Source of the DNA: an uncultured Actinomycetes bacterium
GTDB lineage: Bacteria > Actinomycetota > UBA4738 > HRBIN12
Direction: 5' to 3'
Assembly (NCBI GenBank): GCA_963746995.1
Contig: CAVVDF010000006.1
Coordinates: 15,403-79,402 of the forward strand
DNA length: 64,000 nucleotides
In this document: positions 10,616-64,000 of the stretch, one piece after another
How positions within the stretch are numbered: position 1 is the stretch's first letter
Layout of the letters: each line of letters opens with the position of its first letter
The notes under the pieces: generated by a model
Database searches by the model: none
Told to the model about the DNA's origin: nothing
The model's input: the letters and a program-made list of their open reading frames with translations, nothing else
Program-made: the position numbers and the translations under genes

Positions 10616-11560
10616 CAAGGCCTCGATCGCCTCAGCGTTGCCCATCGCCTCGTCGCGTGCGAGGTGCCGTGGCTCCTCCAGACCCCTCAGCGCGCGGTGG
10701 ATATGCCGGATCGCCGGGGTGAACGATCGCTCGCCGCTCGGCATCGCGTCCGCCGTTTCGACGACCTCGCCCTCGCGCACCACCGTGAGCGTGTCGCCCC
10801 CTTCCGGGTGGAACGGGTTCGTCATGACGAGCTCGCCTTCGGTCCCGCACACGCGCGTGGTCGTGTCGTACGCGCTGCGGAACCCGCACGAAAGCAGCAG
10901 GCGACGGTCGCCCGGGAACGTGAGCGCCCCCCACAGCTCGATGTCGACGCCTTCCCACACGGCATCGGCGACCGTACGATCCAGCCGCGGCTCGTCGTCG
11001 AACAGCAGCCGGGCCAGCCGGATCGGGTAGCACCCGACGTCTTGGGTCGCCCCCCCGCTGAGCTCCGCCAAGAGCCGCACGTCTTCGGGATCGTCGAGCG
11101 AGAAGTGGAACCGCGACACGATCTCGCGTACCTCGCCGATCGCGCCACCGGCGAGGAGCGCCTGCGCGTGCGTCATCTGATCGTGGAACGGGAAGACGAA
11201 CGCCTCCCACAGCGGCGGGCCGTTCACCGCCAGCACGTGCGAGGTTTCGGCCGGCGTGGCACAGAGCGGCTTCTCCGAGAACACCGCCTTGCCCGCCTCG
11301 AGCGCAGCGATCGTCCACGCCGCGTGCAACCCGTTGGGGAGCGGGATGTACACGGCCTCGATGGAAGGGTCCGCGAGCACGGCCTCGTAGGACCCGACAC
11401 CGCTCTTCACGCCATGCGCTGCCGCCCAGGCCGAGGCGCGGGCGGCATCGCGGCTGCCGACGACGACGGCCTCCCCGTCACCTGCCTCGGCGAGCGCCGG
11501 CAAGAAGGCGCCGGCCGCGATGCCGGCGGTCCCGAGGATGCCCCAGCGGATCGGCTCCAT
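10598..11560 (-). CDS. Gfo/Idh/MocA family NAD(P)-dependent oxidoreductase
   Basis: 320 aa from ATG 11560 (MEPIRWGILGTAGIA...). Rossmann motif GxLGxG and the EKPL motif (AVFSEKPLC). Confidence 0.85.
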   Translation of the reverse strand: MEPIRWGILGTAGIAAGAFLPALAEAGDGEAVVVGSRDAARASAWAAAHGVKSGVGSYEAVLADPSIEAVYIPLPNGLHAAWTIAALEAGKAVFSEKPLCATPAETSHVLAVNGPPLWEAFVFPFHDQMTHAQALLAGGAIGEVREIVSRFHFSLDDPEDVRLLAELSGGATQDVGCYPIRLARLLFDDEPRLDRTVADAVWEGVDIELWGALTFPGDRRLLLSCGFRSAYDTTTRVCGTEGELVMTNPFHPEGGDTLTVVREGEVVETADAMPSGERSFTPAIRHIHRALRGLEEPRHLARDEAMGNAEAIEALLAAAR

Positions 11561-11631
11561 GCCGGCACCGTACCGGATGCGGGTTCCCGCCCGGGAGGCG
11601 ATCGTGGGAGGATCCTGGGCGGGGGGTTCAG

Positions 11632-41300: not shown

Positions 41301-43218
41301 GGTCGTCCTCGGCTTCGAGGTTCAACACGGCGCCGCGCGCGTCGAGGACGCCGAAATCATGGACGTAGACACGGCCCTCGCCGTGCAGCGCGATCGGGAT
41401 CTCCTCGACCGCCCGCAATCCGAGGGACTCGAGTAACGGCATGAAGGCCGACAGATCGACCTTGCCGCCCGTCTTATACAGCTTCACACGCGTGAGCCGC
41501 TCGCCGACGCTCTCGTTCGCGATCCCGATCACGAACCCGTCGGTTTCCGACGACAGTTGCTCGAGCCGCTCGACATCCAACGCGACCTGTGCCCAATCGG
41601 TCTCGGTCGTCTTGTAGTAGTCGGGGAAGCGTGGCCCGTACTGCGCCGCGAGCTGCGGTCCGCGTTCGGATCCAAGACGCGCGGTCATCTCGTCGAGGAG
41701 ATCGTCCTCCCACGTCCGCGCGAGGCGCTCGACCTCCTCTTCCAGCTCCTCGTACGGGATCTCGGGGATCTGTCTGCCCTGCTCGACGTGAACGGTGAAG
41801 AAGATCTTCGCGGACTCGGTCTCCCCGAGCGACAGGTGGTAGTCGATCGACGTGCCCTCGAACCGAGCCAAGAACATGTCTTGCAGGCGTTTGCGGAGCG
41901 TCGCGCTGAACCGCTCCCGCGGGAGCGCCACCACGATCGACACCTGCCGGCCGAACAGATCCTTGCGCACAAGCACACGGATCCCGCCGTGCTTCTCCAG
42001 CTGCAGCAGGCCGACGACGAGCATGCGGAGCTCCTCGGTCGGCGCCTGAAAGAGCTCGTCGCGAGGGAAGGACTCGAAAAGCTCGACCGTCTCCTTGTAG
42101 TCGTGCGAGCCGGGGATCAGATCTTCGGCCACGATGATCTGCTCCAGCTTGTGGTGCAGCAGCGGCGTCTTCGACGCCGGCTCCATGTAGGCCTTCGACG
42201 TGAACAGCCCGATCAGCCGGGCCTCCCCGATAACTTGCCCCTCGGCGGAGACCATGCGCACGCCGACGTAGTCCATCCGGGCACGGCGGTGCACCGTGCT
42301 GTAGGCCTTCGTCTTCGTGATCACCAGTAGGTCGCCCTGCTCGATGCGCCGTCGGACATCGGGCGCGAGGCTGTCGAGCGGCGTTGCGTCTGCGAACGCG
42401 CTCATCGAGACGTCGGACAGGATGCCGAGACCCGAGCCGGGCACCGCCAGGATCACGCGACCCTCCGGACGCTCTTCGATCCGGTACTCGCGATAGCCGA
42501 GCAAGACGAAGTTCAACTGCAGCAGCCAATCCACGAAGTCGACCGTCTCGCCGACCTCCTGTGGGGAGTACGAGACCGTCGCCTGCCGGGCCAGCTCCGC
42601 CATGTGCCGCACCCGCTCTTGCATCGGCTCGAAGTCCCGGACGACGAGCCGCACGTCGTGCAGGATCGCCCGGATCCGCCCTTCGAGTTCCTCGCGATCG
42701 CGCTCCGAGAGTCGCCGGTCAAGCTCGAAGTGCATCAGGGACTCCCGATGCGAGGCGTCACGGCTCGCCAGCACACGCTCGAGGTGGCCGTCCTCGGCGC
42801 GGTGGGTGCCGATCATCGGGTGCAACAGCATCCGCACGGAGAGGTTCCGGGCGTTCAGCTCTTCGGTCACCGAATCGACCAGGAAGGGCGAGTCGTCGGT
42901 ATTCGTCTCGATCACCGTCCCGGGCACGTCGTAGCCGTCGGCGTCGATCGTTGGCACGAACACGCGCACAACCGCGGGGTGATTCCCGCGGGCATCGACG
43001 AACCGGAAGGCCGACAGGACTGTGCCAAGAAGGTCTGCAACGGAGCGTGACTCGAGTTCCTCGACGCTCAGCCGCCGCAGGAACATGCGGGCGAACGTGA
43101 GGAGAGCGTCCCGGCGATCCGGCGGTGCGCCCGATTCGATCTCGGCGACGAGTGCGGCGAGGGTGGGGTGGGTAGCGGTCTGAATGGTCTCTGCGGGCTG
43201 CGCAGCCGGGTCGGACAC
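38392..43218 (-). CDS. gdh: NAD-specific glutamate dehydrogenase, large (about 1600 aa) GdhB/Gdh4 type
   Basis: Single intact 1609-aa reading frame from GTG 43218. It is collinear with the large NAD-GDH family: N-terminal ACT-like regions, a central GDH catalytic core (GGIRWSDR, KGGFIL), and a long C-terminal domain. Confidence 0.85.
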   Translation of the reverse strand: MSDPAAQPAETIQTATHPTLAALVAEIESGAPPDRRDALLTFARMFLRRLSVEELESRSVADLLGTVLSAFRFVDARGNHPAVVRVFVPTIDADGYDVPGTVIETNTDDSPFLVDSVTEELNARNLSVRMLLHPMIGTHRAEDGHLERVLASRDASHRESLMHFELDRRLSERDREELEGRIRAILHDVRLVVRDFEPMQERVRHMAELARQATVSYSPQEVGETVDFVDWLLQLNFVLLGYREYRIEERPEGRVILAVPGSGLGILSDVSMSAFADATPLDSLAPDVRRRIEQGDLLVITKTKAYSTVHRRARMDYVGVRMVSAEGQVIGEARLIGLFTSKAYMEPASKTPLLHHKLEQIIVAEDLIPGSHDYKETVELFESFPRDELFQAPTEELRMLVVGLLQLEKHGGIRVLVRKDLFGRQVSIVVALPRERFSATLRKRLQDMFLARFEGTSIDYHLSLGETESAKIFFTVHVEQGRQIPEIPYEELEEEVERLARTWEDDLLDEMTARLGSERGPQLAAQYGPRFPDYYKTTETDWAQVALDVERLEQLSSETDGFVIGIANESVGERLTRVKLYKTGGKVDLSAFMPLLESLGLRAVEEIPIALHGEGRVYVHDFGVLDARGAVLNLEAEDDLVQDALTAMWRGDAEVDSLNRLVIFAGLSWHQVHILRAYRKYRMRVSTRFTEEYRNDALAEHPHIARRLSELFEAKFDPIRAQPGSDAEAIRQQIREDLKAVASLDQDLILRSMLGTILATVRTNAYLSDRPALALKIRSAIVPEMPKPFPLVEIFVYSSQMEAIHLRGGMVARGGIRWSDRKEDYRTEVLGLMKAQKVKNAVIVPDGSKGGFILKRPTSTPAELKQEVATQYVTFMRGLLDVTDNLVQGLVQHPEGVRVLDGDDPYLVVAADKGTAAFSDTANGVSEEYGFWLGDAFASGGSAGYDHKALGITARGAWESVKRHFRELGVDVLRDPFTCVGIGDMSGDVFGNGMLYTETVRLVAAFDHRNVFLDPDPDPVASFAERRRLYALPGSSWADYDPSRLSPGGAILDRKAKAVTPSKEVRTALGIADDAPDEMTPDQLIRAILQAPVDLLWNGGIGTYVKGTRETQSDVGDRTNDAVRVNGAQLRARVVGEGGNLGCTQRGRIEYASAGGRINTDFIDNSAGVDTSDHEVNWKILLGLAVQRGELTLDGRNELLQDCAPDVVQHVLYDNYLQAQILSQEEEVSAQRIESYEELMQQLEADGELEREVEFLPAADEMGERRAAGRGMTRPELAVLLAYAKRQVYAALLASDLPDTEYLAADLARYFPPKIVGRFGHLLADHPLKREIIATIAANDVVNSQGITFVSRMITETGSAAADVIKAFRIARDITGAVGRWSDVEALDGLIDPAVQSELMSGVDWLVETTSRWYLVQGAGTRLADAVEMARASFSEVSDAISQIGPDVWREEHEHAARRLVAEGVPESVAHRHAFQPELVHAPDIIAVAHATGRPPLEVARGFFVLGERLDIDWLEAQLEQLPASTRWQRWAQQSMEDDLFSLRRRLCERVLESAGGAPIDEAVERYFAEHEQATERVRRFLHGLKLEGVGDLSQVTVALRQIRSLAN

Positions 43219-43313
43219 GTTTCGGGCGCCTCGTCGTCGGGTCGGCGGTTCCGTGCCGGCACGGAACCCGTACGGTGCACCATCGTAGCCGCTCGAGACA
43301 GGCCCCGGAACGC

Positions 43314-45179
43314 TCAGACGATCGTGCTGCGTGCCGCTTCGACCACATCGGCCGCCCGGTCGTACCGGCCGAACTGCGGCATCACGTAGATACCGGCGAC
43401 CCCCGCCGAGCGGAGCGAGCCGACGAGGTCGATCGCGAGGCCGCGACCTGTTGCCCAGGCACGGTCCGCGTCTTCGCCGGCGGCGGCCATCGCTGCACGC
43501 GTCGACTCGGGGATCTCGATCCCCGGAACCTCGTTGTGCAGGAACGCAGCGTGCCGCGCGGAGACGAGCGGCAACACTCCGGCGAGGATCGGCACCTCGA
43601 GCGGCTCCCCGGTCGTGCGCTCGTACGCGGCATGCAGGCGCACGATCGACGCGACGTCGTAACACGGCTGCGTCAGCAGGAAGCGCGCGCCGGATCGCAC
43701 CTTCTTGGCGAGCAGGCGAACCTCACGGTCGATATCCGGCGCGTTCGGCGACACGGCGGCCCCGGCGACGAACGAGGTCGGCTCTCCGATCGAGGAGCCC
43801 GCGCGATCGACGCCGGCGTTGAAGTGCTCGGTGATCAGCTGCAGCAAACCGGTCGCCGTCACGTCAACGTCGTTCGAGCCGTGCGGGTAATCGCCGATCG
43901 TGACCGGATCGCCCACGCACACGAACAGGGTGCGGATGCCGAGCGCATGCGCGCCCAGCAGATCTCCCTGTAGCCGCAGGATGTTGCGGCCCCGCGTCGG
44001 GAAGTGCAGCACCGTCTCGACGCCGACCTGGTCTTGGATCAACCGACACGCGGCCCAGGCGCTCATCCGCATCTTCGCCATGGGCGAGTCGGCGACGTCG
44101 ATCGCGGTCGCGCCCGCATCGCGCAGCGTCTCCGCGGCGGCCACGAGTCGCTGGGCGTTGAACGATCGCGGTGGCTCCATCTCGACGGTGATCGCGAACG
44201 TGCCATCGGTCAAGGCGCGCTCGAGCGCCGTCGGCACCTCGACGACCGTCCGCTCGGCAGGTCCCGTGTCCTCCGGCGGCGGGAACGTCACCACCGAACG
44301 CGTCGCAGCGTCGGCGATCGCGTTGACGATGGCAGCCGTGTGCGCCGGGCCGGTGCCGCAACAACCCCCGACGATCGCCACGCCCGCCGCGACCAGATCC
44401 CGCGCAACGTCGGCAACGTAGTCAGGCGTCGCCGGGTAGACGAACCGCCCCGCGACCTCGGTGGGGCCACCGGCGTTCGGGCGCGCCACGATCGGGCAGC
44501 GGGCGGCCGCAGGCATCATCGCCGCAACGATCCGGACCGCCTGCGCCGGGCCCTCCCCGCAGTTCACACCGAGCGCGTCCACCTGGAGTTCGCCGAGCGC
44601 GGCCGCGACCAACCCGGGTGTGTCACCGAGGAGCGTCCGGTCGTCGCGCGTGAACGTGGCGCTCGCGATCACCGGTATCCCCGGGGCCGCGGCTCGGGCG
44701 GCGGCGACCGCCTGCTCCAGTTCCCGCAGGTCGGTTTGCGTCTCGATCACGAGGACGTCGACGCCCGCCTCGGCGAGCGCAGCCGCCTGCTCCCGATACG
44801 CCTCGTACGCCTCCGCCGGTGCGACCCGACCGTAGGGCTGCAACCGCACACCGAGCGGCCCGATCGATCCGGCGACGAGCGGTGCCCCGGCGTCGCGCGC
44901 TCGCGCCACCCCCGCGCGGCACAAAGCGTCGACCTCGCCGGCGAGACCGTGCTGCTCCAGCCGGAAGCGGTTCGCGCCGAACGTGTTCGTCGCGAGGAGC
45001 CGGGCGCCGGCGCCGACGAAGGCCGCGTGGATACCCACGACACGCGCCGGCGCCCGGACGTTCAGCGCCTCCATGCAGGCGCCCACAGGCACCCCGGCGT
45101 CGATCAGCGCGGTCCCCATACCGCCGTCCGCCACTAACGGCCCTTCGGCGAGGAGCGCGCGGAACGCGGCTGTGTCCAT
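43314..45179 (-). CDS. bifunctional homocysteine S-methyltransferase / 5,10-methylenetetrahydrofolate reductase (YitJ-like fusion)
   Basis: 622 aa from ATG 45179. The N-terminal Hcy-binding domain has GGMGT and a Cys-rich zinc site GGCCGTGP. The C-terminal MTHFR domain has MSAWAACRL...VGDP. Confidence 0.8.
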   Translation of the reverse strand: MDTAAFRALLAEGPLVADGGMGTALIDAGVPVGACMEALNVRAPARVVGIHAAFVGAGARLLATNTFGANRFRLEQHGLAGEVDALCRAGVARARDAGAPLVAGSIGPLGVRLQPYGRVAPAEAYEAYREQAAALAEAGVDVLVIETQTDLRELEQAVAAARAAAPGIPVIASATFTRDDRTLLGDTPGLVAAALGELQVDALGVNCGEGPAQAVRIVAAMMPAAARCPIVARPNAGGPTEVAGRFVYPATPDYVADVARDLVAAGVAIVGGCCGTGPAHTAAIVNAIADAATRSVVTFPPPEDTGPAERTVVEVPTALERALTDGTFAITVEMEPPRSFNAQRLVAAAETLRDAGATAIDVADSPMAKMRMSAWAACRLIQDQVGVETVLHFPTRGRNILRLQGDLLGAHALGIRTLFVCVGDPVTIGDYPHGSNDVDVTATGLLQLITEHFNAGVDRAGSSIGEPTSFVAGAAVSPNAPDIDREVRLLAKKVRSGARFLLTQPCYDVASIVRLHAAYERTTGEPLEVPILAGVLPLVSARHAAFLHNEVPGIEIPESTRAAMAAAGEDADRAWATGRGLAIDLVGSLRSAGVAGIYVMPQFGRYDRAADVVEAARSTIV

Positions 45180-52178: not shown

Positions 52179-53774
52179 TCAGTCCTCGGCGAGCGCGCGT
52201 GGGTGCAACAGCCCGTAGGTGTATGCGTCAACGAGCGCCTCCCACGAGGCCTCGATGATGTTCTCGCTGACGCCGACGGTGGTCCACTCACGCTCGCCGT
52301 TCGACATGTCGATCAGCACACGCACGACGGCGCCCGCGCCGACGCTCCGATCGAGTACACGCACGCGGAAGTCCTCGAGTTCCATGTCGTCCAGCTGGGG
52401 GTAGTCGTTCGCAAGCGCCTTTCGCAACGCGTTGTCGAGTGCGCCGACCGGCCCTTGGCCCTCGGCGCTCTCGATGTGACGCGTGCCCTTCGTCGTCACC
52501 TTGACGGTCGCCTCAGCGAGCGGATCCTCGCCGTCGCCGACGCGCTCCTCCACGTGCACGCGGTAGCTCTCGATCCGGAAGTACTCCTGGGACCAGCCGC
52601 CCGCCCGGCGAAGCAGCAGCTCGAGCGAGGCCTCCGCCAGATCGAACGTGTAGCCCTCGGACCCACGAGCCTTGAGCTCCTCGACGGCAACCGGGATCGC
52701 CGCGTCGTCGATCGGCAGGCCGAACTCGTCGGCTTTCATCCGGATCGACGCGCCGCCGCTGTAGTCGGAGGCGACCACGCCTCGGCGGTTACCGACGGCC
52801 TCCGGGGGCACGTGCTCGTACGCGCGGGACACGCGCGCGACCCCACTCGTGTGCAGTCCGGCCTTGTGCGTGAAGGCATACCGACCGGCGTAGGGCTGCC
52901 GCGCCTCCGGCGCGAGGTTCGCGATCTCAGCGACATAGTGCGCAAGCTCGGTGAGGTGTTCGACGGCGCCGGCGGGCAATGCATCGGTCACGCCGAGCTT
53001 CAGCGCGAGGTTTGCGGCGATCGGCACGATGTCGGCGTTGCCCGTGCGCTCGCCGTAGCCGTTGACCGTTCCTTGGACCTGCAGAACCCCAGCGTCCACC
53101 GCGACGAGCGAGTTCGCCACGGCACAGCCCGCGTCGTTGTGCACATGGATCCCGAGCGGCACGCCGGTCTGTTCCTTCACGGTCTTGACGACGCGGGCGA
53201 TGTCGAACGGCAGCATGCCCCCGTTCGTGTCGCACAGCACCAGACGTTCGGCGCCCGCCTCCTCCGCGGCCGCCAGCACCGACATCGCGAACGCGGGATC
53301 GCTCGCGTACCCATCGAAGAAGTGCTCCGCGTCGAAGAACACGCGCCGGCCCTGCCCGCGCAGGAAGGTGACGGAATCTCGCACCATCGCGACACCCTCG
53401 TTAAGGTCTGTGCGCAGCGCCTCGGTGACGTGCAGATCCCAGGCCTTGCCGACCAAGCAGACGACCTCGGTGCCGGCGTCCAGCAGGTCTCGGAGCGCCT
53501 GTGCGTCCTGGGTGCGTTCGCCCGCCCGCCTGGTCATCCCGAACGCGGTCAGCTCCGCGTGCTGCAGCGTCTCCTTCGTCGCCAGCTGGAAGAACTCCGT
53601 GTCGCGGGGGTTCGCCCCCGGCCAGCCGCCTTCGATGTACGGGAAGCCGATCTGGTCGAGCTTGTGCAGGATGCGCAGGCGATCCTCGACCGTGTACGAC
53701 AGATCCGCTTGCTGGGCGCCGTCGCGCAGCGTGGTGTCGTACAGCTCGACCGAGACCGGCATGCGGTCGCTCAC
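52179..53774 (-). CDS. cimA: (R)-citramalate synthase / long-form 2-isopropylmalate-synthase homologue
   Basis: 531 aa intact with YDTTLRDGAQQ and HVHNDAGCAVANSL, plus a C-terminal LeuA-dimer regulatory domain. Confidence 0.75.
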   Translation of the reverse strand: MSDRMPVSVELYDTTLRDGAQQADLSYTVEDRLRILHKLDQIGFPYIEGGWPGANPRDTEFFQLATKETLQHAELTAFGMTRRAGERTQDAQALRDLLDAGTEVVCLVGKAWDLHVTEALRTDLNEGVAMVRDSVTFLRGQGRRVFFDAEHFFDGYASDPAFAMSVLAAAEEAGAERLVLCDTNGGMLPFDIARVVKTVKEQTGVPLGIHVHNDAGCAVANSLVAVDAGVLQVQGTVNGYGERTGNADIVPIAANLALKLGVTDALPAGAVEHLTELAHYVAEIANLAPEARQPYAGRYAFTHKAGLHTSGVARVSRAYEHVPPEAVGNRRGVVASDYSGGASIRMKADEFGLPIDDAAIPVAVEELKARGSEGYTFDLAEASLELLLRRAGGWSQEYFRIESYRVHVEERVGDGEDPLAEATVKVTTKGTRHIESAEGQGPVGALDNALRKALANDYPQLDDMELEDFRVRVLDRSVGAGAVVRVLIDMSNGEREWTTVGVSENIIEASWEALVDAYTYGLLHPRALAED

Positions 53775-54823
53775 GCCGAGCCCTCGACGACGAGATCGCC
53801 GATCTCACTTGTCGTGAAGCCCATCTCGCCGGCACGCATGCTCTTCATCTGGCTCGTCGCCGCGCGGATCCCGCGGTCGACGCGTTCGGCGGCCTGGGTT
53901 TCGCCGAGCTGGCGCAGCAGCATCTCGAGCGCACCGATGGCGGCGAGCGGATTGATCGTGCCCTTGCCGGTCTCGCTCGGCGCCGTACCTCCGATCGGCT
54001 CGAACATCGACACGCCGTCGGGATTGATATTGCCGCCCGCGGCGATGCCCATCCCGCCTTGGATCATCGCGCCGAGGTCCGTGATGATGTCGCCGAACAT
54101 GTTGTCGGTGACGATCACGTCGAACCGCGACGGCGAGTCCAGGAAGTAGATGCACGCCGCGTCGACGTGCACGTAGTCGGTCTCGACGAGCGGGAACTCG
54201 GTTGCGACGTCGTCGACGACTCGCTGGTAGAGGTCGCCGGCGAAGGTCAACACATTCGTCTTGTGCACGAGGGTGAGCTGCCTGCGTCGAGCGGGCGAGG
54301 CGGCTAACTCGAATGCGTAACGGACGATCCGCTCCACTCCGTGCCGCGTGTTGATGGACTCCTGCACGGCAACCTCATGCTGCGTGCCCTTGCGATGGAA
54401 GCCGCCCGCGCCGCTGTACAGGCCTTCGGAGTTCTCACGGACGACGACGAGGTTGACGTCGTCCTCGGCGTGGCTCGGCACGAGCGTCTGCACGCCCGGA
54501 TACCGCACGACCGGGCGGAGGTTGACCCACTGATCGAGCTGGAACCGGATCTTCAAGAGCAGCTCGCGCTCGAGGACGCCGGGCTTCACCCGCGGATCGC
54601 CAACCGCGCCGAGGAAGATCGCGTCGCAGGCCGCGAGCTGCTCGAGGTCTGCGTCTGGGAGCACCTCGCCCGTCCGGAGGTACCGATCGGCGCCGAGATC
54701 GAAGTCGACGAGCTCGACCTCGAAACCGTTGCGGACGGCGTCGAGCACCTTGAGCCCCTCGCCGACGACCTCGGGTCCGGTGCCGTCGCCCCGGATCACC
54801 CCGATCCGGTACGAACCGGTCAC
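53771..54823 (-). CDS. leuB: 3-isopropylmalate dehydrogenase
   Basis: 350 aa intact with the IDH/IMDH signature [25 protein letters not shown]. Confidence 0.9.
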
Positions 54824-56418
54824 GGGGTGACCTCGTTCGTTTGTGCCTCGTCCTTCGCTTGTACCCGCAGCGCGCGGTTCACCGCCGCGAGGTACGCGCG
54901 CGCGCTCGCCTCGACGACGTCGGTCGCGACGCCGCGGCCCGTCACGCGCCGCCCGTCGATGTCGAGCTGCACCACGACGTCGCCGAGCGCGTCGGTGCCA
55001 CCGGTCACCGCCGAGACGTGGAAGTTCACGAGCCGGGCCTCGACGCCGGCGGCGCGCGCGATCGCGCCCATCACCGCGTCGATCAATCCGTCGCCGATCG
55101 CCGACTCCTCGATCGTCTCATCGCCCTTCGTGAGGTGGACCGTGGCCCGCGGCTGCAGATGCGTGCCGCCGCCCACGACCACCGATTCGAGAAGGAAGAC
55201 GTCAGCCTCCGCCGCGCCCAGTCTCCTCGGCGACGATCGCGGCCAGATCCTGGTCGGTGAGCTGAACCTTGCGGTCGGCGAGGTCCTTGAAGCGCGTGAA
55301 CGCGCGGTTGCAACTGCGCGTCGTCGAGCGTGATGCCCAGCTTGTCCAGCGCGTCGACGAACGCGTGCCGGCCGCTGTGCTTGCCCAGCACCAGCTGGTT
55401 GCCCTCGAGCCCGATCTCGAGCGGGTCCATGATCTCGTAGGTCGCGCGGTTCGCGAGCACGCCGTGCTGGTGGATGCCGCTCTCGTGCGCGAACGCGCTC
55501 GAGCCGACCACCGCCTTGTTCGGCTGCACGCTGTACCCGGTCATCATCGACACCAGCCGCGACGTCCGGGTGATCTCCTTGATGTTGAGGCCGTGCTGCA
55601 CGCCGAGGTGCTCGCCGACGCGTGCGGACGATCATCGCGATCTCCTCGAGCGAGCAGTTGCCGGCGCGCTCGCCGATCCCGTTGACGGCGACCTCGATCT
55701 GGCGAGCGCCGTTCTCGATGCCGGCCAGCGCGTTCGCGACCGCCAGACCGAGATCGTTGTGGCAGTGCGTCGAGATGACGACCTCGTCGGGCAGCTCCTG
55801 GCGCACGATCCGGACCAGCTCGCCGAACTCCGTCGGCGTCGCGTACCCAACCGTGTCGGGCACGTTGATCGTCGTCGCGCCGTGCTCGACGGCGAGCCGG
55901 TAAGCACTCGAGCAGGAACTCCAGCTCGGTGCGCGTCGCGTCCTGCGCGGAGAACTCGACGTCGTCGGTGTAGGTCTTCGCCAGCTTGACGTTGTCCTCG
56001 ATCGCCTGCAGCACCTGCTGGTTCGACATCTTCAGCATCGCGCCCATCTGGATGTCGCTCGTCGAGATGAAGGTGTGGATGCGCCAGCGATCGGCGCCTT
56101 TGAGCGCCTCTGCGGCGCGCTCGATGTCGCCGGTGGCCGTGCGCGCGAGCGCGGCGATCACGGGGCCGTGCACCGAATCGGCGATCTCGCGCACGGCTTC
56201 GAACTCGCCCTGCCCGAGATCGGGAACCCCGCCTCGAGGATGTCGACGTTCAGCCGGGCGAGTTGTTCGGCGATCTCGACCTTCTCGGCGCGGGTCAGCG
56301 CGATGCCGGGCGCTTGTTCGCCGTCGCGCAGGGTCGTGTCGAAGATCCGTACTACGTCTGATTGGCCTACCGCTTCGCTGCTTGAGCCCTGTACGTCGGG
56401 GTCTGCATCCGTACTCAT
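54820..56418 (-). pseudogene. leuA: 2-isopropylmalate synthase, reading frame broken about five times
   Basis: All LeuA segments are present in order across ORFs 56158-57435 (C-terminal part), 55544-56194, 54820-55863 and 55083-55601. They include [28 protein letters not shown] and the [13 protein letters not shown] region. Frame switches fall near 56200, 55890, 55620, 55300 and 55210. Confidence 0.8.
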
Positions 56419-56420
56419 GG

Positions 56421-57435
56421 TCAACTCGGCACTTTCTTCTCGGACTCCAACCAGGGCATCATCTGGCGCAGCTGCCGTCCCACGTCTTCGAGCTGGGAGG
56501 TCTGCGCCTGCTTGCGAAGTCGGAGGAACTCCGGGAAACCGGCGTCCGCCTCGCCGATCCACTTCTTGGCGAACGTGCCGTCCTGGATCTCGGCGAGGAT
56601 CTGCTCCATCGCCTGCGCGGGAATGCTCGTCGACCACCCGCGGGCCGCTCTGGTAGTCGCCCCATTCGGCGGTGTCGGAAACGCTGTAGCGCATCCACGA
56701 CAGGCCGCCCTCGTAGATCAGGTCGATGATCAGCTTCAGCTCGTGCAGACACTCGAAGTAGGCGATCTCCGGCTGGTAGCCGGCGGCCACCAGCGTGTCG
56801 AAGCCCGTTCTTGACGAGGCTCGGAGACGCCACCGCACAGGACGGACTGCTCGCCGAAGAGGTCGGTCTCGGTCTCTTCCTTGAAGCGTGGTCTCGATGA
56901 TGCCGGCGCGGGCGCAGCCGATCCCGGCCCCGTAGGCGAGCGCGCGGGCTTTCGCCGCGCCCGTCGCGTCCTGCTGCACCGCCACGAGACCGGGCGTGCC
57001 GATCCCTTGCTCGTAGGTACGGCGCACAAGGTGGCCCGGGCCCTTTGGCGCGATCATCGTCACGTCCACACCCGCCGGCGGCACCACCGTGGCGAAGTGG
57101 ATCGAGAAGCCGTGGGCGAACATCAGCATGTCGCCGTCCTCCAGGTTCGGGCGCGATGTCCACGCGTAGACGGCGCCGTGCGACGTGTCGGGCAGCAGGC
57201 ACATGATCACATCGGCGTCCGCGACGGCGTCGGCGGTGTCGAGCACCTTCAGCCCGGCCTCCTCGGCCTTGACGCGACTCGACGATCCGGGGCGAAGCCC
57301 CACGCGGACGTCATGCCCGCTGTCCTGCAGGTTCTGGGCGTGTGCGTGACCCTGCGAGCCGAACCCGAGCACCGCGATCTGCTGTCCGGCGAGCGCGTTC
57401 GGCTCGGTCTCCGCCTCGTAGTAGATCGTGGCCAT
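56421..57435 (-). pseudogene. ilvC: ketol-acid reductoisomerase, reading frame broken about three times
   Basis: The N-terminus has [17 protein letters not shown] intact. The middle ([19 protein letters not shown]) and C-terminus ([14 protein letters not shown]...) are in other frames, in ORFs 56736-57029 and 56421-56609. Confidence 0.8.
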
Positions 57436-57484
57436 GGTCGGCGTCCTTCCTTCCTCGTCGGTGCGTTCGCGGCCCAGGGTCGCC

Positions 57485-58013
57485 TCAGGCGTCGTTCGCG
57501 ACCTTGAGAGACCGGTCCTTGATACCGCGGCCGCCGCGGCCGAGCGCGATCCGCCCGGTGCGCGAGAGCTCGACGACGCCGAAGTCGCGCAGCAATCCGA
57601 GCAACGCCTCGAGCTTCTCGGACTTGCCGGCGGCCTCGAGCGTGAGCGTCGTCTTGCGTCACGTCGACGACGTTCACGCGGAACACGTCGGCGATCTCCA
57701 TCACGCGGGCTCGCCCGTCGCCGTCGGCGCGCACCTTGACGAGCATCAGCTCGCGTTCGACCGCCGAGCCGGGATCGTGCTCGAGGATCTTGATCACGTT
57801 CACCAGCTTGTTCAGCTGCTTCGTGACCTGTTCGAGCGGCTTGTCCTCGACATTGATCACGATCGTCATCCGCGAGATCCCCGGTTGCTCCGTCGCGCCG
57901 ACGGCGAGCGAGTCGATGTTGAACCCGCGCGCCGCGAACAGACCCGCGATCCGGGTGAGCACGCCGGGCCGGTCCTCGACGAGCACCGAGATCGTGTGCA
58001 GGTGGCCGTTCAT
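57485..58013 (-). pseudogene. ilvN: acetolactate synthase small (regulatory) subunit; one frame break
   Basis: The ACT domain is [28 protein letters not shown]. The C-terminal part [16 protein letters not shown]...KVANDA* is in another frame, with a switch near 57645-57668. Confidence 0.75.
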
Positions 58014-59758
58014 ACGATCGGCGCCTCCCCCGGGATCTCGTGGGGCGCGAACTCGGGCCCGAGGATGATGTCGTCGTTCGATGCGCCCGCGGGCACCATC
58101 GGGAACACGCCCTCGCGCGGGTCGACCCGGAAGTCGATCACGACACTGCGATCCTCCACCGCATACGCCTTCTCGATCGCCGCGTCGACCTCCTCGGGGC
58201 TCTCCACCCGGAACCCCACCGCCCCGTACGCCTCGGCGAGCCGCACGTAGTCGGGCGACGTCCGGATTGAGGTACACGCCCGAGTAGCGCTCGTCGAAGA
58301 ACAGCTCCTGCCATTGGCGGACCATCCCGAGATAGCCGTTGTTCAGGATCGCCGTGATGAACGGGATCTGTTCGGTGTTGCTCGTCGCGAGCTCCTGCGC
58401 CGTCATCTGGAAACAGCCGTCGCCGTCGATCGCGACCACCCGTTTGTCGGGCTGGCCGGTCTTCGCGCCGAGCGCCGCGGGCACGGCGAAGCCCATCGTG
58501 CCGAGCCCGCCGGAGTTGATCCAATGCCGCGGCCGCTCGAAGCGCCAGTACTGCGCACGCGTACATCTGGTGCTGTCCCACGCCCGGCCACGAGGATCGT
58601 GTCGTCGTCGGCGAAGTGCGCGCAGCCGCTCCACGCAATACTGCGGCTTGAGCCGGTCCGATTCCTGGCCGTAGCGCAGGGGGTACTGCTGCCGCCAGTC
58701 GGCGAGCTGTCCGAGCCAGGCGGACCGGTCGGGCGCGCCGTGCTCGCCCTGCCGCTTCGCCAGCTCGACGGCGAGCTTGCCGATCACGTCCTTGCAGTCG
58801 CCGACGATCGGCACGTCGGCGACCCGGTTCTTACCGATCTCGGCCGGGTCGACGTCGACGTGCACGATCTTCGCGTCGGGGGCGAAGGCCGCGAGCTTGC
58901 CGGTGACGCGGTCGTCGAACCGCGCGCCGAGCGCGACCAACAGATCGGCGCGCTGCATCGACGTGACCGCGGTGTAGTTCCCGTGCATGCCCGGCATGCC
59001 GAGGCAGAGCTCGTGCGAATCGGGGAACGCGCCCCGCGCCATCAAGGTCGTGACGACCGGGAGGCCGGCCGATCGTGGCGAGCTCGAGCAGCTCCGGGGG
59101 CGGCGTCGGCCTTGATGACGCCGCCGCCGACGTAGAGGACCGGCCGCTCCGCCGCGAGGATCAGCTTCACGGCCTCGGATACCTGGCGGTTGTTGCCCTT
59201 CGTCGTCGGCCGGTAGCCCGGCAGGTTGATCTTCTCGGGCCAACGTACTCGACGTCGGCGTTCAGCACGTCCTTCGGCAGGTCGACCAGCACGGGGCCGG
59301 GGCGGCCGGTGCTCGCGATGTGGAACGCCTCGCGTACGGTCTCGACGATGTCCTCGGCCCGCTTCACCAGGAAGTTGTGCTTCGTCACCGGGATCGTGAT
59401 GCCGGTGATGTCGGCTTCCTGGAAGGCGTCGTTGCCCACGACCGGCGTCGGCACCTGGCCGGTGAGCGCGACGATCGGCACCGAATCCATCTTCGCGTCG
59501 GCGAGCGGCGTCACGAGGTTGCGTCGCGCCCGGTCCGCTGGTCGCCATGCACACGCCGACCTTGCCGGTCGCCCAGGCGTAGCCCTCCGCCGCGTGGCCG
59601 GCGCCTTGCTCGTGACGGCAGAGCACATGGCGGATCGGCGACCGGTCGACCAGCGGGTCGTAGATCGGCATGCTGGCGCCGCCGGGGATGCCGAAGATGA
59701 CCTCGACGCCCTCCTGCTCGAGGGCCTTGAGGACGGCGTCCGCGCCCTTGACGGTCAT
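58010..59758 (-). pseudogene. ilvB: acetolactate synthase large subunit, reading frame broken at least six times
   Basis: All TPP-enzyme segments are present across ORFs 59042-60073, 59167-59628, 57249-59243, 58138-58638 and 58010-58246. They include GIPGG, GPGATNLVT and GLGTMGFAVPAALGAKTG...AIDGDGCFQM. Confidence 0.8.
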
Positions 59759-59760
59759 CC

Positions 59761-60073
59761 GCGCGGCCACCTCGCGCTGTTCGACGGGCCCGGTCTCGAC
59801 CCGGCGGACCTGCGCCTGCAGCCGATGCGCGAGGTTGCGGCACGCACGCTCGAACTCCCAGGGTGTCCAGTCGCGCCGACGCATCTGCAACACGTCGGGA
59901 ACCTCCTCGTCGCCCATGTCGAACCCGCCGCCCAGATACACCACCTCCGAGGAGAGGTACCGGTCGACCGTCGCACGGGTGGAGTTGTCGATCGCGTCGA
60001 CCGTCACTTGGCCGGGGCCCTCCCACAGAACGCTCGCGACGACGGTGCCGTCTCGCTCGAATTCGTACCGCAT
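59761..60073 (-). CDS. hypothetical small ORF between the ilv attenuator and ilvB (reads into the ilvB start with no intervening stop)
   Basis: AGGAAGGAG RBS, then ATG 60073 ([22 protein letters not shown]...). No homology recognised. It may be a separate small gene whose stop was lost through an indel, or a spurious extension. Confidence 0.3.
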
Positions 60074-60135
60074 GGTGGGTCTCCTTCCTCATGGTCCCCG
60101 CCGAAGGGTCGGGGCCCGGTTGTCGTTGCGGGATA

Positions 60136-60202
60136 CAAAAAGCCCCCCGCTGGGCGGAGGGCATCTGGCGCGGGGGTCTTCGGGCCCGTGGGCCCCCCGC
60201 GC
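60136..60202 (-). terminator. transcription attenuator of the ilv operon: mutually exclusive antiterminator and terminator hairpins, followed by a U-run
   Basis: The minus-strand transcript has region 1 gcgcggggg (which abuts the leader stop codon), region 2 cccccgcgc, and a terminator gccctccg-cccag-cggggggc followed by uuuuugu. Region 2 can pair either with region 1 or with the terminator 3' arm. Confidence 0.6.
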
Positions 60203-60253
60203 CTAGGCGATAAGTACGAGGACGCTGTGTCCGGTCACAGCCTTGTTCGACAT
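60203..60253 (-). CDS. ilvL: ilv operon leader peptide MSNKAVTGHSVLVLIA (16 aa), rich in Val/Leu/Ile regulatory codons
   Basis: ATG 60253 to TAG 60205-60203. The five consecutive branched-chain codons VLVLI sit immediately before the stop, which abuts attenuator region 1. A TTGACA -35 element, a 17-bp spacer and a cacact -10 lie just upstream at 60263-60291. Confidence 0.55.
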   Translation of the reverse strand: MSNKAVTGHSVLVLIA

Positions 60254-60301
60254 CGTTCAGACAGTGTGCGGCCCAACCGCCGAGGTGTCAACCTCGGGGC
60301 T

Positions 60302-62381
60302 TCACTGTGTCCCGCGCGAAGACTGCGGCGTGACGAAGAAGTCCTGGTGCATGCCCATCGCGTAGTGCCCGGGGAGGTTGCACACCACGGCGTCATGCCC
60401 CGGGGCGAGATCCAGGGTCAGCATCATCACCGCACCGGGCTCCATATCGCCGGTCTCCCCGACGTTGGTGACCCCCTTGGCGTCTTCGTCGATCCGGTTG
60501 GCCTCGCCCTCGAAGCTCACGATCGGGAATGCGGCGGCCGGGGTGTCGGTGGCGAGCACCACGAACTCATGCTTCTTCGCACCGTTGTTCGTCACGAGGA
60601 ACGAGACCTTGCCCTGGGGTGCGAAGGGTTGGGACAGATCGATCGCCATGTGGGTGGCGTCGGTCTCGGACAGCCCCACCTCGACGGGGGTGGCGCCGGT
60701 GGGCGTGACGAAGAAGTCCTGGTGCATGCCCATCGCGTAGTGCCCGGGGAGGTTGCACACCACGGCGTCATGCCCCGGGGCGAGATCCAGGGTCAGCATC
60801 ATCACCGCACCGGGCTCCATATCGCCGGTCTCCCCGACGTTGGTGACCCCCTTGGCGTCTTCGTCGATCCGGTTGGCCTCGCCCTCGAAGCTCACGATCG
60901 GGAATGCGGCGGCCGGGGTGTCGGTGGCGAGCACCACGAACTCATGCTTCTTCGCACCGTTGTTCGTCACGAGGAACGAGACCTTGCCCTGGGGTGCGAA
61001 GGGTTGGGACAGATCGATCGCCATGTGGGTGGCGTCGGTCTCGGACAGCCCCACCTCGACGGGGGTGGCGCCGGTGGGGCGTGACGAAGAAGTCCTGGTG
61101 CATGCCCATCGCGTAGTGCCCGGGGAGGTTGCACACCACGGCGTCATGCCCCGGGGCGAGATCCAGGGTCAGCATCATCACCGCACCGGGCTCCATATCG
61201 CCGGTCTCCCCGACGTTGGTGACCCCTTTGGCGTCTTCGTCGATCCGGTTGGGCCTCGCCCTCGAAGCTCACGATCGGGAATGCGGCGGCCGGGGTGTCG
61301 GTGGCGAGCACCACGAACTCATGCTTCTTCGGCACCGTTGTTCGTCACGAGGAACGAGACCTTGCCCTGGGGTGCGAAGGGTTGGGACAGATCGATCGCC
61401 ATGTGGGTGGCGTCGGTCTCGGACGAGCCCCACCTCGACGGGGGTGGCGCCGGTGGGGCGTGACGAAGAAGTCCTGGTGCATGCCCATCGCGTAGTGCCC
61501 GGGGAGGTTGCACACCACGGCGTCATGCCCCGGGGCGAGATCCAGGGTCAGCATCATCACCGCACCGGGCTCCATATCGCCGGTCTCCCCGACGTTGGTG
61601 ACCCCTTTGGCGTCTTCGTCGATCCGGTTGGGCCTCGCCCTCGAAGCTCACGATCGGGAATGCGGCGGCCGGGGTGTCGGTGGCGAGCACCACGAACTCA
61701 TGCTTCTTCGCACCGTTGTTCGTCACGAGGAACGAGACCTTGCCCTGGGGTGCGAAGGGTTGGGACAGATCGATCGCCATGTGGGTGGCGTCGGTCTCGG
61801 ACGAGCCCCACCTCGACGGGGGTGGCGCCGGTGGGCGTGACGAAGAAGTCCTGGTGCATGCCCATCGCGTAGTGCCCGGGGAGGTTGCACACCACGGCGT
61901 CATGCCCCGGGGCGAGATCCAGGGTCAGCATCATCACCGCACCGGGCTCCATATCGCCGGTCTCCCCGACGTTGGTGACCCCTTTGGCGTCTTCGTCGAT
62001 CCGGTTGGCCTCGCCCTCGAAGCTCACGATCGGGAATGCGGCGGCCGGGGTGTCGGTGGCGAGCACCACGAACTCATGCTTCTTCGCACCGTTGTTCGTC
62101 ACGAGGAACGAGACCTTGCCCTGGGGTGCGAAGGGTTGGGACAGATCGATCGCCATGTGGGTGGCGTCGGTCTCGGACAGCCCCACCTCGATCACCGGGA
62201 TCGGGGCGTCGTAGCCCTGGATCGGCGGCCCGCTCTGCGCCGCACCGCCGGTGTAGCCGGGGATCATGGCAACGGTCTCGCCACCGCCCTGGGTGTTGAC
62301 GGAGCAGCTCATCAGCAAGGCCACGATCCCCAGCACCAGCCACCCACGAGCGCGGAACCCGAGCTTCCCGATGCGCGTCAT
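60302..62381 (-). CDS. lipoprotein composed of five tandem, near-identical type-1 (blue) copper cupredoxin domains; the frame is interrupted by small indels in repeat copies 3 and 4
   Basis: AGGAGA RBS, then ATG 62379-62381, then lipobox LLMSCSVN. A 125-aa unit (...HMAIDL...AKKHEFVV...CNLPGHYAMGMHQDFFVTP) is repeated five times and carries the His/Cys/His/Met ligand pattern. The gene lies 9 bp downstream of the cytochrome c gene in the same orientation. Confidence 0.7.
60330..62190. repeat. tandem repeat of 5 x about 376 bp (periods 375, 376, 379, 376), more than 98% identical
   Basis: Unit starts (gtgacgaagaagtcctggtgcatgcccatcg) are at 60330, 60705, 61081, 61460 and 61836. The copies differ only by a few single-base indels or substitutions (ggttggcc vs ggttgggcc, gacagcccc vs gacgagcccc, cccttggc vs cctttggc). 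Confidence 0.9.
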
Positions 62382-62390
62382 CTCGATCTC

Positions 62391-62849
62391 CTATCCCCCG
62401 CTGGGCGTGCGCCAGTCGGGGCGCGCCGGCGCCGTGGCTTCCCAGGAGCGCATGTACACGACCATCGCTTGGATCTGCTCCTCGGTCAGCGGGCCGCCGT
62501 AGTCGCTCAGCCACGCAGGCATCTCGGTCCCCGGGATGCCGCCGCGCATGATGTCGCGGATCTGTGCGTCGGTGACCGTCGTCAGGAACTCCTGGGAGTT
62601 CAACGCGGGCGCGCTCACCCCTTCCCCTAGCGGGCCGTGACACACCGCGCAGTTCGCCGCCCACAATTGGGTGCCGGCGGCGATCTGTGCCTGCTCCTGT
62701 TCGGCGGTGGCATCGGCGCGGCGCGTGCCTTCCGTGAGCTTGTACAGCGGAAAGGACAACACCAGGATCAGGAGCAACCAGACGCCGGCGAGCTGCCACC
62801 GGCGTGTCGATCGAACGAGGGTCGGATCGTCGAGCGGGGGCGCGCTCAT
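62391..62849 (-). CDS. monoheme c-type cytochrome (membrane-anchored, class I)
   Basis: ATG 62849 overlaps the Rieske stop. An N-terminal TM helix, then heme-binding CAVCHG and a distal Met (GTEMPAW). 152 aa. Confidence 0.8.
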
Positions 62850-63487
62850 GGCGTACCTCCCGACGGCGAGGCGTCCGGAGACGCGCTTCCCGGCGAGGGA
62901 GAGACGTCGCCGGGTGGCGCTGGCGTTGCCGCCGCCTCGCCCTCCACGGACGTGCACGACGGGCCGTTCGCCTCATTCGGGCCGGTCAGAACGCCCTTCG
63001 CGGGACCGGGAAGCACCGTGGCCGTGTCAACCAGGACGCGGCCATCCTCGCTGATCGTGATCTTGAAGCGATCCATCCCCCGTGGTGCCGGTCCTTGGAG
63101 GTACTCGCCGATCAGGTTGTAGAAGCTGCCGTGGCACGGGCACTCGAACTGACCCGAGCTGTCGCAGAAGGGCACCCGACAGCCCAGGTGCGGGCATTTC
63201 TGATACAGCGCACGAAGGCCGCCTTGGTACTGCGTGACGTAGAACCGCCCGCTCAGGAAATACTGAACGGTGCCTTCCTCCGCGTACTCGTCCACGGGAC
63301 CGGCGTCGATGACGGAGCCGGCCCCTTGGCTCGACCGAGGATTCAAGATGTCGTAGCTCGTCCAAGCCCCCTCGGCGATCAGCACGACACCGAGGGCCTT
63401 CCAGGTGGTATTCAGGAACCGTCGCCTGTCGATCTCCGGTCCGGTCTCTGTCGCCGACGGCTCGTCAACATCGTTGGGATCAGGCAT
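62846..63487 (-). CDS. qcrA: Rieske [2Fe-2S] iron-sulfur subunit of a cytochrome bc-type complex (Tat signal)
   Basis: RRRFL twin-arginine motif. The two cluster boxes are CPHLGC and CPCHGS. GGAG RBS. Confidence 0.85.
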
Positions 63488-63488
63488 C

Positions 63489-63998
63489 TCAGAACTCCGC
63501 GTACGAGTGCTGCCACGGTGGGACCCAGCTCCAGCCGGGGCCCCGGAAGAACGTGCCCACGACCGTCAGCACGAGCGCGAGCACGGCGACGATCGTGAAG
63601 ACGGTGACGACGAACGTCCGAGCGCGAACCCGGTGGTCCGTCCCTCGGTCGATGTACGGGAGCGCGAAGAGCCAGACGAGCGCTGCTCCCGGGATCAGGA
63701 TGCCCGCCACCATGGGGGCGAAGTGCGAGAGCAACTCCTGCAGCCCTGCGAAGTACCACGGGGCCTTCGCGACCTCAGGCGTTGCGTTCGGGTTGGCGAT
63801 CTCCTTCAGCGGCGCGTTAAACACGATCGCGAGGACGAACACCACAGCGATCGTCGCCGCCGCCACGACCACGTGGCGGACAAGAAGATGGGGCCACGTG
63901 AAGACCTCGTCCTGGGGCTCGAGCCGGTCCTTCTGTTCGACCTCCTTCTCGACGACACCGAGCAGTCGGTAGCGAGGCTCCTGGTCACTCGTGGGCAT
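63489..63998 (-). CDS. cytochrome b C-terminal domain protein (b6f subunit IV / PetD-like), indicating a split b6-type cytochrome b
   Basis: ATG 63998 (3 nt from the window end). [15 protein letters not shown] aligns with the PetD EPAWPNDLL region, and [13 protein letters not shown] is the PEWY-type quinol-site motif. Three TM helices. The cytochrome b6 partner is presumably upstream, outside the window. Confidence 0.7.
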
Positions 63999-64000
63999 CG

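Follow-up and report, generated by a model that had tools for sequence, protein, structure and literature searches.

The distal half of a probable APWY-clade split Rieske/cytochrome b operon, with a cupredoxin gene, in an uncultured actinomycete

Introduction

Complexes that unite a Rieske protein with a cytochrome b, and that belong to the APWY clade or are linked to NAD(P), are already known. Here we describe a locus with features of both at the end of a 64-kb stretch of contig CAVVDF010000006.1, from an uncultured Actinomycetes bacterium. This whole stretch is referred to as the window. The locus encodes the C-terminal part of a split cytochrome b (subunit IV), a Rieske protein, a monohaem cytochrome c and a predicted blue-copper protein (cupredoxin). 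The NAD(P)-oxidoreductase-containing Rieske/cytochrome b complexes of anammox bacteria were reportedly described by Kartal in 2013 and by de Almeida in 2016.

The APWY clade is named after a motif at the Qo site and was surveyed by Kao and Hunte in 2014 (PMC4122944). The parts of that survey drawn on here include split cytochromes b of deep-branching Actinobacteria in the clade. Among Actinobacteria, they place split cytochromes b only in Rubrobacter, Patulibacter, Conexibacter and Ilumatobacter, in either the APWY or the PEWY-cytochrome c clade. Rubrobacter xylanophilus encodes two such homologues. Partners of APWY cytochromes b are Rieske proteins with an S-F or S-Y signature, of Mid+ to high potential. 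The same parts call APWY characteristic of reverse-operating complexes, on the basis of a single Geobacter p-cresol proposal.

For anammox bacteria, Hauser and colleagues argued in 2025 for quinol bifurcation to NAD(P)+, and measured potentials above +300 mV for two Rieske proteins of Kuenenia (PMC12954380). According to Dibrova and colleagues, short cytochromes b of one subfamily also occur together with large NAD(P)-binding iron–sulfur (FeS) proteins, not in planctomycetes alone but "in many other cases" (PMC5600118).

Results

The genes are very probably the distal half of one operon

A preliminary description of this DNA had placed three open reading frames (ORFs) at the end of the window. 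All three were recovered on the minus strand, with the sizes and domains it gave and a single CAVCH haem motif. The GC fraction of positions 62391–64000 is 0.673. Features of the locus are as follows; lengths are in nucleotides (nt) or amino acids (aa).

63985–64000, minus strand: 3′ end of the cytochrome b6 gene (D-A-H-E and TGA, from translation of the edge frame), overlapping the subunit IV start by 14 nt in a different frame.
63489–63998, minus strand: stand-alone subunit IV, the PetD-like C-terminal part of cytochrome b, 169 aa, three hydrophobic helices (PF00032, 7.7e-12).
63873–63899, minus strand: TWPH..RH (T34–H37, R41, H42) at the cytoplasmic end of subunit IV helix 1, invariant.
63753–63764, minus strand: Qo-site motif APWY, subunit IV residues 79–82, replacing PEWY/PDWY, invariant in alignments.
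62846–63487, minus strand: Rieske [2Fe-2S] protein, 213 aa (PF00355, 4.1e-9).
63413–63427, minus strand: twin-arginine motif RRRFL of the Rieske protein, followed by a hydrophobic anchor (motif-level evidence; RR-x-F-L in most relatives).
63119–63196, minus strand: Rieske cluster-binding boxes CPHLGC and CPCHGSFY, S-Y signature.
62391–62849, minus strand: monohaem class I cytochrome c, 152 aa (PF13442, 1.2e-12).
62637–62651, minus strand: the single haem motif of cytochrome c, CAVCH.
62517–62525, minus strand: candidate Met ligand of cytochrome c, in TEMPAW.
60302–62381, minus strand: sulfocyanin/auracyanin-like type 1 copper lipoprotein gene, five tandem units (PF06525, SoxE).
60142–60162, minus strand: terminator-like hairpin about 140 nt 3′ of the cupredoxin stop, probably the operon end.

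The subunit IV and Rieske genes meet at TGAgATG and the Rieske and cytochrome c genes at ATGA. A 9-nt spacer separates cytochrome c from cupredoxin. A GGAG-type ribosome-binding site stands before each downstream gene (Rieske, cytochrome c and cupredoxin). Inside 60302–64000, neither a promoter-like nor a terminator-like site was found. Given the tight junctions, and a terminator-like site only after cupredoxin, these four genes look like one transcription unit. Subunit IV, Rieske and cytochrome c match their orthologues end to end. With high confidence, we assign these three genes to the distal half of a single operon for a b6-type Rieske/cytochrome b complex of the APWY clade. In relatives, the operon comprises genes for a small protein with two transmembrane (TM) segments, an NfnB/GltD-like FeS flavoprotein, b6, subunit IV, Rieske, monohaem cytochrome c and poly-cupredoxin. 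The first three would lie just past position 64000 here, and the window appears to hold the last 16 nt of b6 alone.

Cytochrome b is split

The preliminary description held that cytochrome b is split and that subunit IV is PetD-like, rather than the C-terminus of QcrB. Homologue lengths, the gene structure of a related locus and the window edge bear this out. First, 119 of the 120 best homologues (67–91% identity) are 166–171 aa long, and an alignment of 45 sequences drawn from those 120 has Met1 throughout. Second, b6 in the related locus L012 is a separate 271-aa gene (PF00033, 9.8e-46). There, an in-frame stop precedes the same subunit IV ATG, with no other start codon in between. Third, the last 16 nt of the window, cGATGCCCACGAGTGA, read D-A-H-E-stop in the other frame, with the stop codon at 63987–63985; b6 of L012 ends ...HADAHE*. 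Hence, the petB-like gene sought upstream is represented by its last four codons and stop. Instead of an in-frame fusion at 63998, the edge carries a stop in another frame. This overlap between b6 stop and subunit IV start is kept in L002, L004, L007, L012, L013 and the window. We conclude that cytochrome b is split, not fused.

Subunit IV had also been credited with its own ATG. This is not provable from the window alone, because the ATG is the first full codon at the edge, with 2 nt upstream. The invariance of Met1, the homologue lengths and the in-frame stop of L012 nevertheless back it. The wider family, clustered at 50% identity (E ≤ 1e-3), comprises 1,879 clusters and includes fused forms of 429–444 aa and N-terminally extended forms.

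Subunit IV aligns with PetD (1q90_D, 2.2e-6) over residues 34–151, starting at the TWPH motif. Hydropathy and an AlphaFold2 model place its helices at residues 35–59, 81–116 and 128–150. The model, built from the 45-sequence alignment, had a mean predicted local distance difference test score (pLDDT) of 60.1. This is too low for a fold search, so the three-helix layout alone was used. APWY occurs in 90 of 90 loci, a count biased by one scan pattern that itself contained APWY.

PetD has Asn at the position of H37 and lacks a His at that of H42. TWPH..RH is thus possibly a quinone or haem contact. Altogether, five invariant histidines are without counterpart in PetD or in b6 of the b6f complex. 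These are H37 and H42 of subunit IV and H35, H55 and H129 of b6 (L012 numbering; 83 relatives). They could be cytoplasmic-side ligands of an extra haem or quinone site. In models of the anammox complexes, an extra haem is held by His43/His62 (PMC12954380).

The Rieske protein has a high-potential signature

Briefly, the Rieske protein carries RRRFL at residues 21–25, CPHLGC at 98–103 and CPCHGSFY at 116–123. The S-Y signature predicts a high-potential centre, by a rule given in the parts of PMC4122944 drawn on here. Most relatives have S-Y and the others S-F, the exceptions being one CPCHGTQF and three hits without a match. The protein had been called dependent on twin-arginine translocation; the motif is present, and the evidence stays at motif level. 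The best PDB matches are two Kuenenia stuttgartiensis proteins, Kustd1480 (9rk3, 5.8e-19) and Kuste4569 (9rk4, 3.5e-16). Matches to PetC of b6f reach about 1e-14. The match to QcrA is far weaker (2e-5, against 6e-19 for the best Rieske matches). In line with the earlier statement that the organisation is not that of QcrCAB, both the Rieske protein and the cytochrome c are small and unlike QcrA and QcrC.

Two further cysteines lie outside the cluster boxes. Cys108 (PFC, 63164–63172, minus strand) is conserved and sits between the boxes. The second (GPSC, 62954–62965, minus strand) is near the start of a Pro/Ser-rich C-terminal tail. Together they may form an additional disulfide.

Cytochrome c is monohaem and is followed by a poly-cupredoxin gene

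Cytochrome c has one N-terminal hydrophobic helix (residues 17–39), which serves as membrane anchor. Its start is backed by a GGAGG site and by the ATGA overlap. Best PDB matches are CcoP and QcrC domains. The possibility that it belongs to a longer dihaem protein had been raised. Relatives are 152–158 aa long, with a single CxxCH in 80 of 85. Both a fused QcrB and a dihaem QcrC-like cytochrome were accordingly rejected.

The cupredoxin gene contains a tandem array at 60327–62191 (minus strand) of five 375-bp units, 99% identical. In this assembly, its frame is broken about six times in units 2–3 (61815–61060). The L012 orthologue is intact, with 687 aa and five SoxE domains. Hence, the integrity of the gene in the window is uncertain. 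Relatives differ in the number of copies, and their gene products range from 181 to 687 aa. The best PDB match is auracyanin B (1ov8), with whose Cys/His/Met ligands KKH, C-x-L-P-G-H and M align. With a domain containing the His, Cys, His and Met ligands, the protein is assigned to the type 1 (blue) copper class on sequence grounds. A lipobox-like LLMSC is also present. In some relatives, an additional ORF without Pfam match lies between cytochrome c and cupredoxin; in L002 it encodes 138 aa (11528–11944).

In relatives, the module includes an NAD(P)-type flavoprotein

A scan of species-representative genomes gave at least 600 pattern matches, at least 594 of which encode a relative. The best 80 of these at least 594 are nearly all from metagenome-assembled genomes (MAGs) of Actinomycetota (unclassified, Solirubrobacterales, Acidimicrobiia, Ilumatobacteraceae and Microthrixaceae), plus one from Gemmatimonadaceae. 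The hosts are Actinomycetota of soil, freshwater and other environmental metagenomes. Positions 54001–64000 of the window have collinear counterparts in L012 and L013, two loci on MAG contigs from Microflora Danica, at about 85% nucleotide identity over 10 kb.

The order flavoprotein–b6–subunit IV–Rieske–cytochrome c was found in all related loci with enough upstream DNA. In those loci, from at least two classes and including L012 and L013, the flavoprotein gene directly adjoins b6. Cupredoxin is always a neighbour of the module, lying downstream in the clade resembling the window and just upstream of the flavoprotein in an Acidimicrobiia-like clade. In the relatives' gene calls, module genes are spaced by 10 nt or less, or overlap.

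The flavoprotein of relatives has about 600–620 aa, 20 Cys and neither TM segment nor signal. Its domains are Fer4_20, Pyr_redox_2, an NAD-binding domain and a C-terminal 2x[4Fe-4S] region, with a GAGPAG and two CxxCxxCxxxC motifs. The best structure matches are NfnA of the Bfu-type NfnABC (9bov/9bp5, 2.6e-86), NfnI-L and GltD, while the C-terminus matches FwdF (5t5i). The Kuenenia oxidoreductase subunit likewise resembles 9bp5 and 5t5i (PMC12954380).

The b6 proteins of relatives keep all four haem-ligand histidines. They align without gaps to b6 of b6f (2.5e-44), and less strongly to cytochrome b of bc1 (about 1e-33) and to actinobacterial QcrB (about 1e-26 to 1e-28). The helix D histidines are 14 residues apart, as in b6, in 83 of 84 sequences. 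At the haem ci/cn site, Cys35 is replaced by Arg (CxGG to RLGF), and 62 of the 84 contain no cysteine at all.

Three further observations concern the related loci. In about 45 of them, within the window-like clade, a two-TM ORF of 66–80 aa overlaps the flavoprotein gene and lies directly 5′ of it (71 aa in L012, 7111–7326). It had no Pfam or NCBIfam match and may be an extra membrane subunit. The Gemmatimonadaceae locus (L087, MAG contig JAXLXW010000009.1) has the same flavoprotein–b6–subunit IV–Rieske–cytochrome c module, with 52% identity in subunit IV; its occurrence there suggests lateral transfer or mis-binning. Two candidates for a pair of modules in one MAG were also seen. One, L080/L083, proved to be strain duplicates (95% identical) and was rejected. 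In the other, L017/L032, the apparent copies are 70% identical.

The rest of the window encodes amino-acid metabolism

Elsewhere, the window carries leuA, leuB, ilvBN, glutamate dehydrogenase, MetH-like and aminotransferase genes. Respiratory oxidase genes were found nowhere in the 64 kb, and an Rfam scan of the window gave no match. A very large NAD-specific glutamate dehydrogenase is encoded at 38392–43722 (minus strand), in an open frame of about 1,776 aa (Bac_GDH_CD, 3e-232) among the leuA, leuB, aminotransferase and MetH-like genes. A gene for a LeuA/CimA-like protein, 100% identical to a database entry, lies at 52179–53804 (minus strand). The Pfam domains of ilvB/ilvN (57249–60073, minus strand) are spread over at least four frames and partly run together. 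This points to assembly indel errors or pseudogenes and calls for caution over all gene calls in the window.

Discussion

A possible quinol-bifurcating complex

The reading that we prefer, tentatively and at somewhat below even probability, is electron bifurcation. Menaquinol would deliver electrons both to the Rieske/cytochrome c/copper chain and to NAD(P)+, as modelled on the quinol-based bifurcation proposed for the related anammox complexes. Menaquinol would be oxidised at a Qo site free of carboxylate (APWY), built by b6 and subunit IV. The first electron would be taken up by the high-potential Rieske centre and relayed, outside the membrane, by the membrane-anchored cytochrome c and the blue-copper domains of the lipoprotein, presumably towards a terminal oxidase. 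The second would cross the membrane through the two b haems to the cytoplasmic flavoprotein, and travel along its FeS chain and FAD to NAD(P)+. Menaquinol lies at about −70 mV and the Rieske centre would lie above +260 mV, a large drop that would pay for the uphill branch. Such a quinol to cytochrome c to copper branch had been proposed before. It is plausible, because the blue-copper gene is a conserved partner in relatives.

A fuller version is more speculative, and we think it rather unlikely as a whole. It pictures a compact complex of six to seven genes, bifurcating quinol electrons and producing NAD(P)H, widespread in soil Actinomycetota. The invariant histidines may then hold an additional haem or quinone linking haem bN to the flavoprotein, and electrons of the high-potential branch would pass by way of cytochrome c and blue copper and presumably end on oxygen. 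For one anammox complex, the proposed high-potential acceptor is instead nitrite reduction.

Several points weigh against bifurcation. The b6 and flavoprotein genes lie outside the window and are deduced from relatives and from 16 nt at its edge. A conventional site of quinone reduction could be built from the invariant R41 and H42 of subunit IV, and a normal Q cycle would then be favoured. According to the parts of PMC4122944 drawn on here, no APWY-clade complex has been biochemically characterised. The anammox mechanism is itself a proposal based on AlphaFold3 models (PMC12954380). Finally, the present module differs from the anammox complexes in three ways. It has a monohaem cytochrome c and blue copper, where they have hexa- and octahaem cytochromes (and an HAO-like protein). 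Its subunit IV has three TM helices, not five. The haem cn cysteine is missing, in contrast to haem cN of the anammox complexes. Hence, the module is at most a variant of the anammox type.

Alternative explanations

An ordinary forward complex III is possible, although we consider it unlikely. It would be a menaquinol:cytochrome c/cupredoxin oxidoreductase with a normal Q cycle that feeds an oxidase. The flavoprotein would then either feed NAD(P)H electrons into the b haems or quinone as an accessory or be a separate, co-transcribed enzyme. The core subunits are complete, with the four haem-ligand histidines conserved in b6 of relatives, and cytochrome c and copper carriers are typical acceptors. 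R41/H42 could belong to a Qi-type site, and the surrounding window is plain housekeeping metabolism. Against this reading, the flavoprotein gene adjoins b6 in every related locus with enough upstream DNA, in at least two classes. A Qo site without carboxylate and a predicted high-potential Rieske centre are also unexpected in a phylum that presumably uses menaquinone, since menaquinol oxidisers typically have PDWY and a low-potential centre. Furthermore, Rubrobacter xylanophilus has two split cytochromes b, and those of Actinobacteria belong to the PEWY-cytochrome c or the APWY clade. Hence, on the parts of the Kao and Hunte survey drawn on here, the APWY type may be a second, specialised complex.

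Reverse or confurcating operation seems improbable. Here, a high-potential extracytoplasmic donor would reduce cupredoxin and cytochrome c, and electrons would reach menaquinone, driven by the proton-motive force or by NAD(P)H electrons arriving through the flavoprotein. The multi-domain blue-copper lipoprotein could serve as an entry wire, and Kao and Hunte, in the parts cited, associate APWY with this direction. That idea goes back, in the same parts, to the one Geobacter gene-cluster argument, however. No donor-oxidising enzyme was found in or beside the module in any locus examined. The hosts are Actinomycetota of soil and freshwater, and the window bears no sign of lithotrophy.

The preliminary description had favoured a b6c or b6f complex of the type found in Firmicutes, cyanobacteria and heliobacteria, here in a high-GC actinobacterium. 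We regard this as very unlikely. The split cytochrome b, the b6-like spacing of 14 residues in helix D, and b6 and PetD as best solved-structure matches among classical complexes do speak for it. Conversely, the motif is APWY, not PDWY or PEWY, and in b6 of relatives Arg stands in for the haem ci cysteine of CxGG. Subunit IV is not fused to cytochrome c, there is no cytochrome f, and the genes come in another order. Scores against the NCBIfam models for b6f and PetD stay far under the cut-offs and are exceeded by those for ExtP and ExtQ. The suggestion that the arrangement is unusual for its phylum was not supported either. At least 594 stretches encode a relative, mostly in Actinomycetota genomes, and the parts of PMC4122944 drawn on here already report split APWY cytochromes b from Actinobacteria.

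It is hardly credible that we are dealing with an artefact, a full-length QcrB truncated by the window edge or a frameshift so that just its C-terminal part shows as the 169-aa ORF: frames are broken elsewhere in the window (ilvB/N, cupredoxin) and a few 50%-cluster representatives carry the subunit IV part at the C-terminus of 429–444 aa proteins, but the lengths and conserved Met1 of close homologues, and the other-frame stop overlap kept in five related loci, argue against it.

Significance

Few cases of quinol-based bifurcation towards NAD(P)+ have been proposed, and Rieske/cytochrome b complexes with an attached NAD(P) oxidoreductase are among them. Discussion of these complexes has centred almost entirely on anammox bacteria, a difficult group to study. 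Here, their core recurs in a simpler monohaem-plus-copper form at at least 594 sites, mostly in Actinomycetota MAGs. This suggests that its chemistry, whatever its nature, is widespread. If bifurcation is correct, menaquinol-fed cells would not need reverse complex I to make NAD(P)H. The mechanism would also be testable in cultivable bacteria if the APWY split cytochrome b genes of cultured Ilumatobacter and Conexibacter sit in the same module. The interest of the locus thus lies mainly in its conserved NAD(P) flavoprotein link and its abundance in Actinomycetota. For annotation, "menaquinol-cytochrome c reductase, Bacillus type" should be avoided, and the genes should not be taken to indicate a Firmicute-like chain. 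In literature on Thermoleophilia, Acidimicrobiia or sulfocyanin, we did not find a description of a module from Actinobacteria that combines blue copper with a monohaem cytochrome c.

Comparison with known systems

The APWY clade (Kao and Hunte 2014) shares with this locus the Qo motif, a split cytochrome b and an S-Y Rieske protein. Its hosts include Ilumatobacter and Conexibacter, and MAGs of Ilumatobacteraceae and Solirubrobacterales are among the relatives found here. Placement in the clade is thus suggested by motifs and host list, not by a tree. The parts of PMC4122944 drawn on here report a CxGG haem ci motif, whereas our relatives have RLGF and mostly no cysteine. Those parts make no mention of flavoprotein, monohaem cytochrome c or cupredoxin neighbours.

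The anammox complexes (Kuenenia Kuste4569-4574 and Kustd1480-1485) resemble the module in a four-helix, b6-like cytochrome b with a separate subunit IV-like protein. Both have a high-potential-type Rieske protein, and the Kuenenia Rieske structures are the best PDB matches. The loci of our relatives, like the anammox clusters, also encode a cytoplasmic NAD(P)/FAD/FeS subunit that resembles NfnA (9bp5) plus FwdF (5t5i); in our locus, its gene would lie past the window edge. The hosts differ, being Actinomycetota of soil and other environmental metagenomes in our case.

The Geobacter ExtO/ExtP/ExtQ proteins (extHIJKLMNOPQS; PMC5877670) likewise form a split, uncharacterised Rieske/cytochrome b module and supply the closest NCBIfam models. 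The b6 of relatives scores 257.9 bits against ExtP (7e-77; cut-off 290) and subunit IV of the window 54.7 against ExtQ (cut-off 150). ExtP and ExtQ are the closest named models, without the proteins being members. The ext cluster also encodes multihaem cytochromes, a porin and a rhodanese, and no NAD(P) flavoprotein or cupredoxin is described there (PMC5877670).

The b6f complex of cyanobacteria and chloroplasts is alike in its split b6 and subunit IV, in full-length alignment to PetB and PetD, in the 14-residue helix D spacing and in a PetC-like Rieske fold family. It differs in having PEWY, not APWY, and CxGG, not RLGF, and our relatives have a flavoprotein gene. No cytochrome f gene was found in any locus examined, and no small Pet subunits in the gene lists. 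Scores against the b6f models are low, at 28 bits for TIGR01156 (cut-off 127) and 63 for PetC (cut-off 250).

In the b6c complex of Bacillus, subunit IV is fused to cytochrome c, the motifs are CxGG and PDWY, the Rieske centre has low potential and the gene order is qcrA-B-C. The present module shares with Bacillus QcrABC a split cytochrome b (QcrB/QcrC) and a Gram-positive lineage that presumably uses menaquinone. By contrast, its subunit IV and cytochrome c are separate, the Rieske gene lies between them and the motifs are APWY and RLGF. Actinobacterial QcrCAB has an unsplit cytochrome b of about 540 aa, a dihaem QcrC and a large QcrA. Here, cytochrome b is split, the 152-aa cytochrome c is monohaem and the Rieske protein has 213 aa. 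NCBIfam scores for QcrA, QcrB and QcrC are 25, 125 and 38 bits (cut-offs 275, 500 and 200).

Finally, archaeal SoxM/SoxLN with sulfocyanin and Chloroflexus ACIII with auracyanin also have a membrane-tethered type 1 copper protein, encoded beside a quinol-oxidising complex and probably oxidase-directed. In the present module, unlike in those systems, the copper protein joins a cytochrome c rather than replacing it, is repeated five-fold in tandem and is paired with a bacterial split-b6 quinol oxidase.

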